Notes under the pieces: model-generated
Told to the model about the DNA's origin: nothing
What the model saw: the letters and a program-made list of their open reading frames with translations, nothing else
The model's database searches: none
Program-made: the position numbers and the translations under genes
Source of the DNA: Cyclobacteriaceae bacterium
GTDB lineage: Bacteria > Bacteroidota > Bacteroidia > Cytophagales > Cyclobacteriaceae
DNA: 64,000 nt
Direction: 5' to 3'
Assembly (NCBI GenBank): GCA_965217295.1
Contig: CBDCHR010000007.1
Span: 8,258-72,257, forward strand
In this document: positions 14,486 to 41,583 of the stretch, piece after piece
How the letters are laid out: every line of letters starts with the position of its first letter
Numbering within the stretch: the first letter of the stretch is position 1

Positions 14486-15817
14486 ATGCGCAGCTTGATA
14501 CTTTTTCTACTGACCGCCACATTGGGTACAAGTGTGGCTCAAAGCGACGTCACACTCGTCATCTGGGGAGAGCCCAACACAGTTGGGTGTATAACGGGTA
14601 ATGATGACAGTGAACGCTGCAGCTATGCCCACTACATCAATGACACGTGGGCCGAGATGCATCCCAACATTAAACTTAAGTGGGAGGAGCATGGTTGGGA
14701 CGAAACGTTACGGCAAAATCTGGTAACAGCCCAGCTCGGTGGTGTGGCACCGGATATTACAGTGGGCGAATCCTTTATTCCCGCACTGGTATCCAACGGC
14801 TCACTTGCTCCACTCACCATTTCGCAGGAGGCGCTTGACAATATTGTCCCGGGTACCGTCGCTGCGGCGACGAAGGATGGTCAGGTGTACGGCGTTCCGG
14901 CGCTCACTGCTGTGTTTGCACTCGAGGTCAACGCAGACGTTGTTCGCGAGGCGGGTTTAGACCCTGATACGCTCGATCTCTCGACCTGGGACAAAGTCGA
15001 AGAGGTAGCAGCAGAGATCGCGCAGGCAGGAAATGAGTCATACTATGGATTCTCGATTTTGGGCCAAACGCCCTTCCCGGCAGCGGCCCTCTTTCGCGCG
15101 GCACCCTATATCTATCAAACCGGTGCGGACTTTTGTGCGGAAGGATGCACTGAGCCCACTTTCAACGATCCTCGATCGGTGAAAGCTTATCAGTGGTTCC
15201 GTGATATGTACCAGTACACGCCACCGGGACTGGCTTTCAACGGCGACGAGGGGTTTGTATTCGCCCAGCTTTTTGATGGCCTTACAGCCATGCAAACCGC
15301 TGGGGCTTGGCACCCCACCTGGGCTAAGAGCAGCGGATGCGATGACTGTCGCTATCTGCCTCTGCCGACCCCCGATGAAGGCGGACAGCCTGCGAATGTC
15401 GTCGTGGGCAACCCCATCTATGCTGTTCTCGAGAGCAGTGACCACAAAGACGAAGCGATGATGTTTTTGGAGTGGCTGATCGATCAACAGGTCCAGCTCA
15501 ACGTTTTCTGGGCTTGGGGCTCCATGCCTGCTACCAAGTCAGCCTTGCAAGCGATCACGGAAGTCGCCAATGGTGATCTAACGTCTGTACCAGATTACTA
15601 TAGCGGTGACGATGCACAGGCGCTGGCTAGCGTTTACAGCAACTACATCAACGAACTCCTAACGGGCGACGTGCGGATTTTGCCCCCTTGGGCCAACAAC
15701 GGTCCAGAGTTAAACACACTTTGGAACGACATGTTTGCAGAAGTTCTCACCTCAGACAAGCCGGTGCAGGACATCCTTGATAATTATCAAGCACAGGCCG
15801 AAGCTTTGGTTAGATAG
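14486..15817 (+). CDS. Sugar ABC transporter substrate-binding protein
   Basis: Signal peptide, family 1 SBP features, position before two permeases. Confidence 0.88.
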   Translation: MRSLILFLLTATLGTSVAQSDVTLVIWGEPNTVGCITGNDDSERCSYAHYINDTWAEMHPNIKLKWEEHGWDETLRQNLVTAQLGGVAPDITVGESFIPALVSNGSLAPLTISQEALDNIVPGTVAAATKDGQVYGVPALTAVFALEVNADVVREAGLDPDTLDLSTWDKVEEVAAEIAQAGNESYYGFSILGQTPFPAAALFRAAPYIYQTGADFCAEGCTEPTFNDPRSVKAYQWFRDMYQYTPPGLAFNGDEGFVFAQLFDGLTAMQTAGAWHPTWAKSSGCDDCRYLPLPTPDEGGQPANVVVGNPIYAVLESSDHKDEAMMFLEWLIDQQVQLNVFWAWGSMPATKSALQAITEVANGDLTSVPDYYSGDDAQALASVYSNYINELLTGDVRILPPWANNGPELNTLWNDMFAEVLTSDKPVQDILDNYQAQAEALVR

Positions 15818-15831
15818 TTTCTTGGTTCCGG

Positions 15832-15866
15832 CCTCTCAAGGTAGGGGTTGTTCCTACCTTGAGAGG
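15832..15866 (+). terminator. 14-bp stem-loop after the SBP gene (mRNA stabiliser or partial terminator)
   Basis: CCTCTCAAGGTAGG-ggttgtt-CCTACCTTGAGAGG, a perfect stem. Confidence 0.7.
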
Positions 15867-15909
15867 TTCCCGAAACAGGAAAAACCTACTTGCATACGAG
15901 GTCTGTATC

Positions 15910-16845
15910 ATGCAAAACCGTAAATTTGCCAAGCTTCAACAGCCACCGAACCCAACGCGCTTTGCTCAGTGGCGGCAGAAGCGGCGGCAGAGTTTTACGG
16001 CATGGCTCATCCTTACTCCTGTATTAATTTACTACTTTTTCTTCTATCTTTTACCTGTGGTCGCCAACCTCGCGGTGAGTTTTCTCAACTGGGACGGTTT
16101 CGGCCAGGCTAGATGGGTTGGCTTTGCTAACTTCACGAGGTTCTTCACGTCGCCTCGTTACCTTCAGGTTCTAGGAAACACGGCGCTATTTGCTATCGTC
16201 ATTTTGTTAGCGACTACGGCTTTGGGGTTGTTGGTCGCTTTAGCCCTTAACAGGCAAATCAAAGGCATAGGACTTTACCGGACCCTTTGGTACATTCCCA
16301 CCCTAACCTCCGCCGCGGTTATGGCTCAGATGGCTACGCTTTTCATTGCACCAGGTTCGGGCGTGCTGAGCGCCATCCGTAGCAGTCTGGGACAACCCGA
16401 CATTATCTGGCAAATTGATGTTGGGTTTTCGCGCTTGTTCATCATACTTTTCTCCGTTTGGCGCGGGGTGGGAATGCCGATGCTACTTTACTTGGCAGCT
16501 TTGCAGGGCATCCCTCAAAGTCTTATTGACGCTGCTAAAGTCGATGGCGCAACCTCGTGGCATGCCTTCCGGTATGTGACGCTTCCGCTGCTACGTCCCA
16601 TGACCGCATTCGTGCTGGTTACAGGGCTGATCGGTTCTTTTCAAATCTTTGAACCTATCTTGCTTATCACAACTGGAAAACCGCGCAACACGACAAATGT
16701 TTTGATGTTGCAAATATACAACGATGCCTTTCAAAATCAGAACTTTGGTATGGCTGCCGCGATGGCGACCATCATGTTGCTGATTCTGGTGTGGGCAAGT
16801 TATCTGAACTTGCGCATGCTAGGCCAAACATCTGTGGAGGAGTGA
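15910..16845 (+). CDS. Carbohydrate ABC permease (MalF/UgpA-like)
   Basis: Multiple TM helices; EAA loop variant LIDAAKVDGAT. Confidence 0.92.
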   Translation: MQNRKFAKLQQPPNPTRFAQWRQKRRQSFTAWLILTPVLIYYFFFYLLPVVANLAVSFLNWDGFGQARWVGFANFTRFFTSPRYLQVLGNTALFAIVILLATTALGLLVALALNRQIKGIGLYRTLWYIPTLTSAAVMAQMATLFIAPGSGVLSAIRSSLGQPDIIWQIDVGFSRLFIILFSVWRGVGMPMLLYLAALQGIPQSLIDAAKVDGATSWHAFRYVTLPLLRPMTAFVLVTGLIGSFQIFEPILLITTGKPRNTTNVLMLQIYNDAFQNQNFGMAAAMATIMLLILVWASYLNLRMLGQTSVEE

Positions 16846-16847
16846 GT

Positions 16848-17765
16848 ATGGATAACACCCAGAACTTAACCCAAGATAGCAAAAAAGAGTGGCATAAGCG
16901 CTTGGGTCATTTTGGTCTGCATCTCTTCTTAATCGTTACAAGCTTGATGATGGCTTATCCATTGGTATTTTCGTTCGTCGCTAGCTTTACAAGTCCAAAG
17001 GACTACAACCAGAGCACATGGTTTCCGTTGCCGACCAAGATTTATCTAGCAAACTGGATTGATTTCCTTCAAGAAGGGGACTTGTGGCTTTGGATTTTTA
17101 ATACGATGGTGCGTATTGTCTGGTACATTGTGGTTCCAGCGGCGGTTGCGGTTCTTTGCGGTTATGTTTTTTCGAAGCTTCGATTTAGAGGTCGCAACTT
17201 CATATTTTTCTTATTGCTTGCCTCCATGATGGTGCCTGCCATCGTTTATGTACTGCCGACGTTTATCGGTTTAGCTCACTTTCCACTCGTAGGTGGTAAC
17301 GACATTCTTGGGCGAGGGGGGAGCGGGTTTATCGATAAGTGGGGAGCTTTGCTGTTACCTGGATTGGTTAACGCCTTTTATATCTTTCTGATGCGCCAAA
17401 CATACCAAACGATCCCCAGAGATTATGAGGATGCCGCTAGAATTGATGGGGCCAATACCTTGCAAATTATCGCCAGAATTTACTTACCCCTATTGCGTCC
17501 TGCGCTTATCGTCTTGGTCATTTTTCAATTCGTAGCAGTCTGGAATGATTACCTAAACCCGCTCGTGTTCGCAGGAGGCAATCAGGATATTGCGCCTATT
17601 GCGCTAGGGGCTCAACGGTTTATGCTCTCACAGCGTCTGGGGCAGATAGACTATCCACGCATGTTTGCTGTGGCCACGATCGTCACTCTACCAATCATCG
17701 TGCTGTTTTTGGTTTTACAGCGTTACTTCGTTAGGGGGGTCGCAGGATTTGGTATTAAGGGTTAA
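16848..17765 (+). CDS. Carbohydrate ABC permease (MalG/UgpE-like)
   Basis: TM helices; YEDAARIDGAN; WNDYL. Confidence 0.92.
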   Translation: MDNTQNLTQDSKKEWHKRLGHFGLHLFLIVTSLMMAYPLVFSFVASFTSPKDYNQSTWFPLPTKIYLANWIDFLQEGDLWLWIFNTMVRIVWYIVVPAAVAVLCGYVFSKLRFRGRNFIFFLLLASMMVPAIVYVLPTFIGLAHFPLVGGNDILGRGGSGFIDKWGALLLPGLVNAFYIFLMRQTYQTIPRDYEDAARIDGANTLQIIARIYLPLLRPALIVLVIFQFVAVWNDYLNPLVFAGGNQDIAPIALGAQRFMLSQRLGQIDYPRMFAVATIVTLPIIVLFLVLQRYFVRGVAGFGIKG

Positions 17766-39127: not shown

Positions 39128-40759
39128 TTATAGAAGGTTTAAAGCATCATGAAGACCAGGATGCAAATAAAATGGTCCGTCAATCTCGCATCGCGCATTG
39201 CTATTAAGATACTTGAACTGTGGTCCATGTTTGGGAACCAAATTGCCCATAACCGAGAATTCAAACAGTTGCTTGATTAAATAGGAGGGGTCTCTCCGAG
39301 TGATTCTGATTTCGTTGATTTTGGCTGTATAAGCTTTTTGAAATTCTTCGCCGGAGAATATCTTTTTGTTGATAAGCATAAAGACATCCCACAATTCGTA
39401 AATCTCCGGAATCAAACCTTGTATTTCATCTTCAAGTTCTGTTTTCAGATAAAGAGAGTACCGGCTTTGAATGCGCCGAAGGGCTCGCTCATCAACTTTT
39501 TCAACGTTTATACTAACTGTATCATCTGCACAGTAGCTTAAAAAGCGCACAAAATCCCTTGGTCGCATCAAAGACCTGCTGCTAATTGCATCAAAAATGC
39601 TTACGTCTCCCTCAGAGCGGGATAATTGGACTTTGAAATCATTGAAAACCTGTACCCAGGCTTCTTCAAAGTTGAAAATCTCATTATTCACTGCTATGGC
39701 TCTGGAAATACGAAACGCAAGAAGATTCTTTATCTTATCGGGGTTCCAATCTAATGCAATTGTAAGATCAATCCACTTTGCCCTATCCGGATCACGGAGT
39801 TGAGAGAAAATATCGTCGCGTAGGAAAATAACTGGAAGGACAGATAGTGAATCCCTTTGAAAGATGGATTTAATGTCCTGAACCGCTTTGAATAAGCTTG
39901 TCAACAATGCCTGAAAATCCCCGGTAGAACCCTTGTCAGAACTGCTTTTATAATCCTCATCAAGTTCGTCTAGCGAAATGACATAGGTCGAGCTGTCAAG
40001 GTTTTGAAATATCATTTTCTCCAGAGCTTCAACTCTATCCGTCCAAGATACCTCTCTTTTAATGTTGGACTTCTCAAAATCTATTCCCATGTTGAAAAGC
40101 TTTGCTCCAAAACCTTTGCTAGTCCATTTGCTTATGCTCTGGGACAATGATGTATCGGTGTCCACCTTAAATAATGGTTCGAGTTTCTGTCTGAGTGACA
40201 ACTCGATGTTTTCGTTTTCACACATCATCTGAGCAATGCTTGAATAAATCACGTACTTCCAGAGGGTTATATATTGGTTAGGAGCTGTATAGGAAGTATT
40301 GCTCAAAGCGTATAAATCTCTTAGCGGAAAATTTTTAAATGTTAGCTTCTTACTAAACCAAGAATCCGAGACTTTCTTGGTCAAGTATTCACTAATGGCT
40401 GTTTTCCCGGTACCTTTTCGGCCAATGACATAGCACCGCTTCCCTGACTCTATAAGCTCGACCTCTCGCGTGTGATAAAAATACCGGTCGCTGTCCTCAA
40501 GTTTGGCTTCGACTTTCCACTCCGAAATTTCACTCAGGAGGTGAGGCGTCGCCTTAAACTTTTGTGGGTTGACCACAGAAACATCTACCGCTGTGGGACC
40601 CTTGTTGTTTTTGCTCGGTTCGAATGATACTAACCTACCTTTAGTTAGAACCGGTGCTCCTACAACATCATTTCTGTGAAAAAAACGCTCCTGTCCGTCT
40701 TCTCCTGTCAAAATGCCGTATCGACCTGTTGTGTTGAAAAACTTGATGGTTCCGAGCAT
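39128..40759 (-). CDS. Cold-shock-domain / P-loop ATPase fusion (Sll1717/FunZ-like ATPase)
   Basis: GTIKFFN..GRYGIL..RFFH CSD; GRKGTGKT, SLDELDE, FLRDDIF, RPRD; low GC. Confidence 0.78.
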   Translation of the reverse strand: MLGTIKFFNTTGRYGILTGEDGQERFFHRNDVVGAPVLTKGRLVSFEPSKNNKGPTAVDVSVVNPQKFKATPHLLSEISEWKVEAKLEDSDRYFYHTREVELIESGKRCYVIGRKGTGKTAISEYLTKKVSDSWFSKKLTFKNFPLRDLYALSNTSYTAPNQYITLWKYVIYSSIAQMMCENENIELSLRQKLEPLFKVDTDTSLSQSISKWTSKGFGAKLFNMGIDFEKSNIKREVSWTDRVEALEKMIFQNLDSSTYVISLDELDEDYKSSSDKGSTGDFQALLTSLFKAVQDIKSIFQRDSLSVLPVIFLRDDIFSQLRDPDRAKWIDLTIALDWNPDKIKNLLAFRISRAIAVNNEIFNFEEAWVQVFNDFKVQLSRSEGDVSIFDAISSRSLMRPRDFVRFLSYCADDTVSINVEKVDERALRRIQSRYSLYLKTELEDEIQGLIPEIYELWDVFMLINKKIFSGEEFQKAYTAKINEIRITRRDPSYLIKQLFEFSVMGNLVPKHGPQFKYLNSNARCEIDGPFYLHPGLHDALNLL

Positions 40760-41029
40760 TTATCACCTAGAGCACATTCTATAACGACTGCTCAGATTGG
40801 TCGAGGAGGCACACAAAAAAGATCATCTGGCAGTTCCACCACGCTTCAGACTTTTAGGTGCCGATTCTCAGACAGCATGAATGTTGCATCCATTCGTTCA
40901 GCACTCGAGCCCACGGTCCCGGTCGCGCCCAGCACCGGCTGTCCGGAACGGAACAGTCTTTCCACTTCGAGGAAGCTTGCCGAGGTCGGCTTCGTTGCCG
41001 ATGAAGATGCTCACGCCATCGTGCATTAT

Positions 41030-41281
41030 GGGGTGGTACACCGATCGGAGGCGAAAGTAACGCTACTTAAGCGTCACGCACCGTCGTAGCGTCAAAGAGA
41101 TACTTGCTAGAAAGTTGATATGGCCGTGCCTAACGGGCCACACACGCTCCAAATCCTTGTCTCTAACCTCATGGCATTTTGCTTTATGTCCCTCCACTAT
41201 TCTGGCGATATGAACGGTGTTGAACACGATGACGGCGTTTGTCACAAGGTTCAAACAAGGGGTTATTGGGCGTTGGCCCAA
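41030..41281 (-). mobile_element. Tn3-family remnant: terminal IR plus transposase C-terminal fragment
   Basis: GGGGTGGTACACCGATCGGAGGCGAAAGTAACGCTA resembles a Tn3 IR; LNLVTNAVIVFNT...RHGHINFL. Confidence 0.75.
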
Positions 41282-41324
41282 TAATCCGATTACCGAGTTC
41301 TATGTCTCCCCTATTTTATGCGAG

Positions 41325-41352
41325 CATGTTAAACGGCTAGCATGTCGGCATG
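41325..41352. repeat. Distal CATG-box site of the partition locus
   Basis: CATG at 41325, 41341, 41349, in the same 8-bp phase as the upstream array. Confidence 0.6.
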
Positions 41353-41583
41353 CTAGCCGTGTTTCTCTTTGTAGAACGCCCACACCTGTTCGAACAGCTC
41401 GCTGGCGGTCGTGTGGCGCTCGAGCGCGTACACCTTGAAGTCGGTGCGCAGGTCGGCGCTCAGCTTGAGCTGTAGGGGTACTTTTTCACTGCTGGCGGGT
41501 TTGTTGAGGTTGGCCGTGGTCTCGGCGGGCGTCGGCGGCGCGCCCTTGGTGCCGGTGGGCTTAGCTATCGTCGGCTTTGCCAT
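41353..41583 (-). CDS. ParG-like RHH centromere-binding protein
   Basis: Flexible N-tail plus VPLQLKLSADLRTDFKVYA; directly after parA. Confidence 0.75.
   Translation of the reverse strand: MAKPTIAKPTGTKGAPPTPAETTANLNKPASSEKVPLQLKLSADLRTDFKVYALERHTTASELFEQVWAFYKEKHG

Follow-up and report, generated by a model that had tools for sequence, protein, structure and literature searches.

A cold-shock domain fused to a Fun(Z)/Sll1717-family ATPase on a plasmid of a Cyclobacteriaceae bacterium: a candidate stand-alone phage-exclusion gene

What might a cold-shock domain (CSD) be doing at the head of a P-loop ATPase? The question is raised by a single gene in a 64,000-nucleotide stretch of plasmid DNA from a Cyclobacteriaceae bacterium (Bacteroidota; GenBank assembly GCA_965217295.1, contig CBDCHR010000007.1, positions 8,258 to 72,257 of the forward strand), here called the window. 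An earlier note, made from the letters of the sequence, had described the gene as a CSD followed by an Sll1717/FunZ-like ATPase and had put it forward as a candidate single-gene defence system. Our analysis arrives at a related answer: judged from sequence comparison, the gene is probably a stand-alone, horizontally acquired phage-exclusion gene of the abortive-infection type, which encodes a Fun(Z)/Sll1717 ATPase with an extra N-terminal CSD. The proposal of a defence system holds in so far as the core is homologous to a tested phage blocker, the Fun(Z) protein of phage P2, and has to be narrowed in so far as the locus does not represent a new system: both the family and its anti-phage role were known before, and what is new is the head, the CSD. 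Coordinates of the features are collected in Table 1.

The open reading frame (ORF) is intact on the minus strand, with its ATG at position 40759 and its stop codon at 39128-39130. Both halves that the earlier note had recognised were recovered by profile searches above the respective thresholds: the Pfam CSD model PF00313 matches residues 1-62 (E 4e-8, 33.4 bits versus a gathering score of 27, profile positions 1-65 of 66), and the NCBIfam model NF047389, 'P-loop ATPase, Sll1717 family', matches residues 88-540 (264.8 bits versus a cut-off of 75, model positions 11-454 of 454). The fusion is not an artefact of the assembly, because more than 30 homologues, at 36-46% identity, possess the same CSD-ATPase architecture across 100% of the length.

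The proposed function rests above all on the kinship of the core to Fun(Z). In the P2 record, fun(Z) is located at 15675-17261, encodes a protein of 528 amino acids (AAD03288.1) and is annotated as 'cloned gene blocks growth of T5; nonessential; lysogenic conversion; confers sensitivity to FUdR'. The BASEL study found that Fun/Z inhibits all Tevenvirinae, Vequintavirinae and Markadamsvirinae, which made it the broadest among the classical E. coli abortive-infection systems tested, and in 2021 its mechanism was listed as unknown (PMC8594841). P2 Fun(Z) matches the full NF047389 model with 209.3 bits (cut-off 75), and both proteins are recognised by phrog_13260, with 706 bits for P2 Fun(Z) versus 187.7 bits for the plasmid protein (7.4e-55, residues 91-541). 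When a profile of 54 homologues was compared with P2 Fun(Z) by hhalign, the two aligned over 438 columns (98.8% probability, E 7.5e-17), and this alignment spans the whole ATPase and the C-terminal domain. Walker A, the WK motif of the insertion described below, the PRD motif and a C-terminal SVIG-like motif are present in both proteins. Each is the product of a single, non-essential cargo gene that stands alone on a mobile element. The two differ in that Fun(Z) lacks an N-terminal domain, whereas the plasmid protein carries a CSD and a linker, and in that Fun(Z) resides on a prophage and is the one family member with a tested, known phage-exclusion phenotype, whereas the plasmid protein is known from its sequence. 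A tblastn search against phages returned three distant Klebsiella phage matches only and missed P2, because P2 Fun(Z) is too divergent for BLAST; a search of the viral folds in BFVD likewise did not recover Fun(Z) and returned generic AAA+/clamp-loader matches only. 'FunZ' is also used as a label in Glaesserella capsule loci, where it stands for 'function unknown gene Z'. This label has no bearing on function and was set aside; the homology to P2 Fun(Z) was verified instead.

The invariance of core residues was judged over 54 homologous sequences. In the N-terminal segment of the core, W81 and F94 are invariant and A85, K86, R92 and Y93 nearly so. Between Walker A and Walker B, the family possesses a helical insertion of its own, in which F141, K142, P145, L149, Y150, P160, N161, Q162, W167 and K168 are invariant; R314 and D316 are invariant as well. 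The RPRD motif, which has a counterpart in P2 Fun(Z) (yrPRDilr in the profile alignment), may represent a sensor-2-like arginine motif of the lid. Within the C-terminal domain, L498 and G505 are invariant and F499, F501 and S502 nearly so. Given the invariant Walker A, Walker B and RPRD motifs and the invariant block in the insertion, the protein should be an active ATPase.

An AlphaFold2 model, built from the 54 homologues, is of good overall quality (pLDDT 87.4, pTM 0.85) and shows, in this order, a barrel (residues 2-62), a short and less confident linker, an alpha/beta P-loop domain with the insertion, a helical lid and a C-terminal helix-and-hairpin unit. When compared with the PDB by Foldseek, the model gave the highest TM-scores with archaeal Orc1/Cdc6 proteins (2qby_A 0.52, 2v1u 0.45, target-normalised), followed by subunits of the origin recognition complex (ORC), proteasomal Rpt ATPases, in which an OB fold likewise stands ahead of the AAA+ domain, the RADAR ATPase RdrA and the BREX protein BrxC. 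The core is predicted to fold as an ORC/Cdc6-like AAA+ ATPase with base, lid and a C-terminal winged helix, and the match to 2qby_A lends support to the winged helix that had been suspected from the sequence. Orc1/Cdc6 is the best overall structural match of the protein, and the two have the AAA+ base, the lid and the C-terminal winged helix in common. However, the resemblance is structural only: the orc1/cdc6 model TIGR02928 reaches 12.5 bits versus 181.3, and the plasmid protein differs from Orc1/Cdc6 in its large family-specific insertion, its patchy, accessory distribution and the lack of an origin context.

Searches of the PDB with sequence and profile found cold-shock proteins (Csps) only and no relative of the ATPase part, and Pfam matches to AAA, AAA_16 and nSTAND3 stayed below threshold and mark the P-loop only. 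Membership in the STAND/Avs-type ATPases was not supported by the scans (nSTAND3 15.6 bits versus 27.2, AAA_16 16.8 versus 32.6); the approximately 140 residues that follow the ATPase are taken up by lid and winged helix, where STAND and Avs receptors have a long C-terminal repeat sensor. The earlier note had seen no catalytic effector, and we agree: neither a nuclease nor another enzymatic domain was found in Pfam, NCBIfam and PADLOC scans of the protein. That PADLOC did not detect the core is uninformative, because in a control run no model of PADLOC-DB v2.0.0 detected P2 Fun(Z) either. DS-41 (DefensePredictor study, NF053860) is another validated single-gene P-loop anti-phage protein, and distant Sll1717 members match its model faintly, whereas the plasmid protein has no match to NF053860 at E<=1; DS-41 is at best a distant cousin.

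The CSD itself forms a five-stranded OB-fold barrel in the model (strands 2-9, 14-19, 24-28, 43-51 and 54-62, pLDDT >90), which superposes on the Csp of Bacillus caldolyticus (Bc-Csp, 1c9o) with a TM-score of 0.81 and a root-mean-square deviation of 2.2 A (Foldseek). The earlier description of a complete CSD with both RNP-like motifs is right for RNP2, which is canonical (RFFH), and needs a qualification for RNP1: this motif reads GRYGIL versus KGYGFI in the family consensus, so that the first aromatic residue is kept (Tyr), the second is replaced by Ile, and the Lys is displaced. In an alignment with 34 other fused CSDs and with the two ordinary Csps that the host genome encodes besides the fused domain, the comparison domains have KG(F/Y)GFI as RNP1; to these two canonical host proteins the fused CSD is similar. 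The platform of aromatic residues and His that binds nucleic acid is retained in 86-94% of fused CSDs. As a side observation, a hidden Markov model of the fused CSDs gave a secondary match on the N-terminal motif of the core, KLEDxxRYFYH(T) (residues 86-104, window positions 40448-40504). This motif resembles the beta2-beta3 segment of the CSD, DE-xGxxRFFH, which may be due to chance or may be a relic.

A CSD in a defence context is also known from type V retrons (Retron-Sen1/Se72). The PADLOC model CSD_V, which stands for the type V effector, matches the fused CSD at 2.7e-9 and is the sole PADLOC match of the protein, and NF038236 matches residues 3-62 at 5.5e-8. In contrast, the NF038236 match reaches 32.6 bits versus an equivalog cut-off of 82, and the accessory protein of these retrons is a free CSD of 67-86 amino acids, whereas ours is fused. 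A type V retron was considered and rejected, as the 99%-complete genome has no reverse transcriptase (RVT_1) and the window contains neither an Rfam family nor a retron RNA.

How constant is this head within the family? A survey of N-terminal domain swaps, which the earlier note had suggested, revealed a wide range. Most close relatives are head-less, start at EIxxWKLEAKLEDxxRYFYH and have a length of 475-480 amino acids. A single CSD was found in at least 22 of the best 150 representatives, and among family members there are also tandem CSD-CSD heads (P0264, P0293, P0314, P0258 and P0308). In a monophyletic set from Denitrovibrio and Firmicutes metagenome-assembled genomes, a treble-clef zinc ribbon (PF13451, zf_Tbcl) stands in place of the CSD, and a small MMR_HSR1-type GTPase forms the head of P0245 (690 amino acids). 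Further heads are K/R-rich tails and short acidic peptides (DELxxFIDxxYG, EEIEELDT). The members with the peptide D-E-L-x-x-F-I-D-x-x-Y-G form a subclade (P0058, P0077, P0084, P0096, P0113-P0115, P0119), in most of which Walker A reads GRKGCGKT. Finally, a large and distant branch of proteins of about 765 amino acids carries a nucleoside 2-deoxyribosyltransferase (NDT)/TIR-like head. A representative from Ensifer adhaerens (WP_223730821.1) belongs to the same ATPase family (268.6 bits) and likewise combines a variable N-terminal head with a conserved core in a solitary gene. However, its head is an enzyme-like NDT/TIR-type domain and not a nucleic-acid binder, and its core is only 21% identical to that of the plasmid protein.

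In a tree inferred from the ATPase core (147 rows), the plasmid protein falls into a clade of 14 sequences, all with a CSD, with a support of 99. The presence of the CSD requires at least nine changes on this tree, of which at least six are forced by well-supported branches, and a single CSD clade was rejected in an approximately unbiased (AU) test on a 68-row subset (delta lnL 617, p 3e-50), with a comparison set that was partly chosen after the first tree had been seen. Read from the core tree, at least nine gains, losses or swaps of the CSD have taken place.

At 50% clustering the family comprises 651 representatives (E<=1e-10). A scan with one genome per species yielded 349 relatives, from which we kept 80 loci, distributed over Acidobacteriota, Rokubacteria, Proteobacteria, Bacteroidota, Firmicutes, Actinobacteria and others. 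The homologues are mostly chromosomal and solitary, and their occurrence is patchy over many phyla; even among 60 relatives of the host, 15 of them from the same genus, only one possesses a family member that passes the cut-off. The search for partners took in five genes to either side of the 80 loci, and 654 neighbour proteins were clustered. No neighbour family is present in more than five of the 80 loci, and none recurs at a fixed position: the Fun(Z)/Sll1717 genes stand alone, with no obligate partner, which agrees with the single-gene system that had been proposed. Six of the 80 copies (L057, L060, L066, L067, L073, L078) are pseudogenes, broken up into two or three ORFs each, which fits an accessory gene that often decays.

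The plasmid gene ends a low-GC block that also contains an Eco29kI endonuclease with a C5 methyltransferase, an HhH-GPD glycosylase, a STAND NTPase of 1652 amino acids, a PIN protein of 469 amino acids and a tyrosine recombinase, with whose gene it is convergent. On its other side lie parG-parA, HNH, NERD and ParB genes, and the partition operon, on the same strand, lies about 300 bp upstream of it. The GC content of the ORF is 41.2% versus 56.4% in the window, as the earlier note had implied by calling the gene AT-rich and foreign. Because the adjoining recombinase, parA and parB genes have a GC content of 61-65% (64.6% in parA), we regard the gene, by its composition, as foreign, horizontally acquired cargo of the plasmid and not as a part of its backbone. 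A palindrome and a terminator-like hairpin behind parG set the Fun(Z)-family gene apart from the partition operon. The solo Tn3-like end that follows, for which no partner was found anywhere in the window at up to three mismatches, may be the trace of an old insertion boundary, with the partition operon on one side and the low-GC cargo block on the other. The plasmid is without a match in PLSDB (megablast).

Table 1. Positions of the CSD-Fun(Z) gene, its parts and the elements upstream of it in the window, and of homologues with a zinc-ribbon head in their own loci.
Feature	Position	Strand	Evidence or remark
Whole gene, CSD fused to Fun(Z)/Sll1717-family ATPase	39128..40759	minus	543 aa + stop; ORF list and translation
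Cold-shock domain, residues 1-62; RNP1-like GRYGIL, RNP2-like RFFH	40574..40759	minus	Pfam, PDB Csp matches, Foldseek, alignment
Linker, residues 63-73, length variable among homologues	40541..40573	minus	pLDDT dip to 74; homologue linkers 10-70 residues
Sll1717/Fun(Z)-family ATPase, residues 88-540	39140..40498	minus	NF047389, phrog_13260, hhalign to P2 Fun(Z)
Conserved N-terminal core segment EIxxWKLEAKLEDxxRYFYH, residues 74-105	40445..40540	minus	start point of head-less members
Walker A, GRKGTGKT, residues 113-120	40400..40423	minus	invariant G113 R114 K115 G116 G118 K119 T120
Family-specific helical insertion between Walker A and Walker B, residues 141-255 (FKNFP..LY..PNQYIxLWKY)	39995..40339	minus	motif and model helices 161-253
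Walker B, VISLDELDE, residues 260-268	39956..39982	minus	invariant D264 E265 L266 D267
RPRD motif, residues 399-402	39554..39565	minus	invariant R399 P400 R401 D402
C-terminal helical and winged-helix-like domain, residues 453-543	39131..39403	minus	helices 453-500; strands 504-508, 512-514, 530-532
Promoter-like site TCGACC-17-TAGAAT, then AGGTGA 3 nt before ATG	40776..40804	minus	consensus scan and sequence read
Solo 42-nt Tn3-family-like terminal repeat, GGGG...CTTAAG	41030-41071		~270 bp upstream of gene
Terminator-like hairpin after parG	41263-41284	minus	upstream of CSD-Fun(Z) gene
Perfect 12-bp-stem palindrome ACGGCTAGCATG...CATGCTAGCCGT	41333-41360		directly after parG-like ORF, before terminator-like hairpin
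Zinc-ribbon members	L042:9974-11536, L045:688-2298, L050:381-2021, L052:9815-11401		over gathering score in the three scanned (L042, L045, L052)

A second member of the family is present on the chromosome of the host, a head-less Fun(Z)/Sll1717 paralogue (P0121, C8:5421194-5422645, locus L012:9171-10754, minus strand) with 269 bits on NF047389 and a GC content of 36% versus 50% in its flanks. Its neighbours are a YhcG/DUF1016 PD-(D/E)xK nuclease on one side and a type III restriction-modification pair (Res, Mod) on the other. Among CSD-fused homologues elsewhere, the one in Vibrio harveyi adjoins JetD, BrxR-WYL and PLD-like genes, another lies between VapBC-like pairs with an XRE gene upstream, and others are found near Phd/YoeB, next to recQ or among plain housekeeping genes. 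In eight CSD-fused loci the 46 neighbours are mostly housekeeping genes, with toxin-antitoxin pairs in addition, and include few PADLOC matches (type III methyltransferase/MADS, SIR2-pAgo-like, WYL, LmuA/AriA-like). Defence-island association, which the earlier note had proposed as a check, was assessed qualitatively: it is clear in the window, around the chromosomal paralogue and in Vibrio harveyi, and weak or absent around other CSD-fused homologues, most of which have housekeeping or toxin-antitoxin genes around them. Such a mixed context is typical of a solitary cargo gene that inserts at many variable sites. We also observed one CSD-fused member (P0041, L100:8001-9638) that is inserted in a locus for capsule or polysaccharide biosynthesis, and an MqsR/MqsA toxin-antitoxin pair lies about 3 kb upstream of it; capsule loci seem to be a further landing site of the family.

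How could a protein of this kind exclude a phage? The core would act as an ATP-driven switch of the ORC/Cdc6 type, which assembles on a nucleic-acid cue from the infection by a large lytic phage. The winged helix and the family-specific insertion would engage nucleic acid, and after assembly the replication or expression of the phage would be blocked, or the cell arrested. Because the head-less P2 Fun(Z) is sufficient for exclusion, the core itself would both sense and act, and the CSD would serve as an accessory head for target recognition, from which the protein gains affinity or specificity for single-stranded DNA or RNA, as zinc ribbons and basic tails may do in other members. We infer that this copy defends its host, that its CSD binds single-stranded nucleic acid and that its ATPase oligomerises; the two mechanisms named in the earlier note, sensing of single-stranded nucleic acid or sequestration of RNA upon oligomerisation, are plausible. 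The closest precedent for a CSD as a recognition head is the McrB-like GTPase CnuB of type I CoCoNuT systems, whose N-terminal CSD-like OB fold has been read as an RNA target-recognition module (PMC11090510). There, too, an OB fold of the cold-shock type sits at the N-terminus of an AAA+-class NTPase in a predicted anti-phage system (PMC11090510). However, CnuB belongs to the McrB GTPase clade and needs an McrC-like nuclease partner and coiled coils (PMC11090510), whereas the plasmid protein is a Fun(Z)/ORC-like ATPase without partner or nuclease (AAA_5 12 bits versus 22).

Several points weigh against this interpretation. The plasmid protein and P2 Fun(Z) are only about 20% identical, and because of this low identity the phenotype of Fun(Z) may fail to transfer. 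Since most family members, P2 Fun(Z) included, are without any head, the CSD would be dispensable for the activity of the core, and the role that we assign to it is a guess. In this particular copy, the Ile at one of the aromatic positions of RNP1 could weaken the binding of nucleic acid. The surroundings of CSD-fused homologues are mostly housekeeping or toxin-antitoxin genes in which defence matches are scattered, in a qualitative sample with no control set. Lastly, the promoter-like site in front of the gene is possibly its own promoter, but the consensus scan found three such sites versus 3.6 expected, and the call is no better than chance.

Alternatively, the CSD could be the effector and not the recognition head. 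On this explanation, which corresponds to the sequestration of RNA named in the earlier note and which we consider unlikely, the activated AAA+ core oligomerises, and the clustered CSDs coat or sequester single-stranded RNA, or single-stranded DNA at the replication fork, and thereby stall the cell or the phage. The free CSD protein of type V retrons is the only accessory protein of these systems, and the PADLOC model made for it matches the fused domain, as described above. E. coli CspD is a binder of single-stranded DNA that inhibits replication when overproduced. In the distant branch of NF047389, moreover, the N-terminal position is held by an enzyme-like module of the NDT/TIR type, that is, of the effector type, and tandem CSD heads would increase avidity. 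On the other hand, head-less members are in the majority, and the core needs no added effector, because P2 Fun(Z) suffices for exclusion without a head. The alternatives to the CSD in the close clade, zinc ribbons and basic tails, are tiny and resemble binding adaptors, and a single CSD per subunit would make a weak toxin.

Considerably less probable is a role outside defence, either as a housekeeping or regulatory ATPase of the plasmid, such as an ORC/Cdc6-like replication or maintenance factor beside parA-parG, or as a genuine cold-shock RNA chaperone. The Orc1/Cdc6-like fold with its winged helix and the position on the same strand as the partition operon, downstream of it, would fit the former, and homologues bear the name of cold-shock proteins in databases. 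Yet the low GC content relative to parA, parB and the recombinase marks the gene as cargo, the terminator-like hairpin and the solo Tn3-like end lie between it and parG, and its score on the orc1/cdc6 model TIGR02928 is far below the cut-off (12.5 bits versus 181). The homologues are mostly chromosomal, solitary and scattered over many phyla, the family includes a non-essential prophage exclusion gene, and the host already has two ordinary Csps. The least probable explanation, by a small step, is that the CSD is an integrated decoy that mimics cold-shock or S1-like OB-fold proteins of the host which phage factors bind or modify, so that such an attack on the decoy triggers the ATPase: this would rest on analogy with the integrated decoys of plant NLRs only, and although the similarity to the two canonical Csps of the host and the repeated gain and loss of heads would fit a fast-changing bait, the conserved aromatic platform for nucleic acid would be needless in a pure protein bait, the alternative heads are nucleic-acid binders and not copies of host proteins, and no phage factor that targets Csps was identified in our analysis.

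Under the phage-exclusion reading, with the CSD as a recognition head, the heads of the family may tell more than the function of one gene. The repeated addition of small binders of single-stranded nucleic acid to the N-terminus provides a concrete hypothesis for the cue or target of Fun(Z). We suggest, tentatively and with some doubt, that single and tandem CSDs, zinc ribbons and basic tails may reveal the job of the head-less core, which would be that of an ATP switch of the ORC/Cdc6 kind, loaded onto single-stranded nucleic acid that arises from the replication or recombination of large lytic phages. No description of a CSD-Fun(Z) fusion turned up in a literature search, and a query for 'Sll1717' returned 0 papers. 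Several family members (P0023, P0099, P0008, P0009 and P0063) are named 'cold-shock protein' or 'cold shock CspA family protein' in NCBI and JGI; these labels in public annotation conceal probable defence genes with a Fun(Z)-type ATPase of 450 residues, in a family that is also overlooked by defence annotation with PADLOC-DB v2.0.0. If the suggestion is true, the CSD-fused members would offer a tractable entry to the mechanism of exclusion by P2 Fun(Z), and the family would represent a nucleic-acid-sensing class of single-protein AAA+ immunity in which no enzymatic effector is needed.

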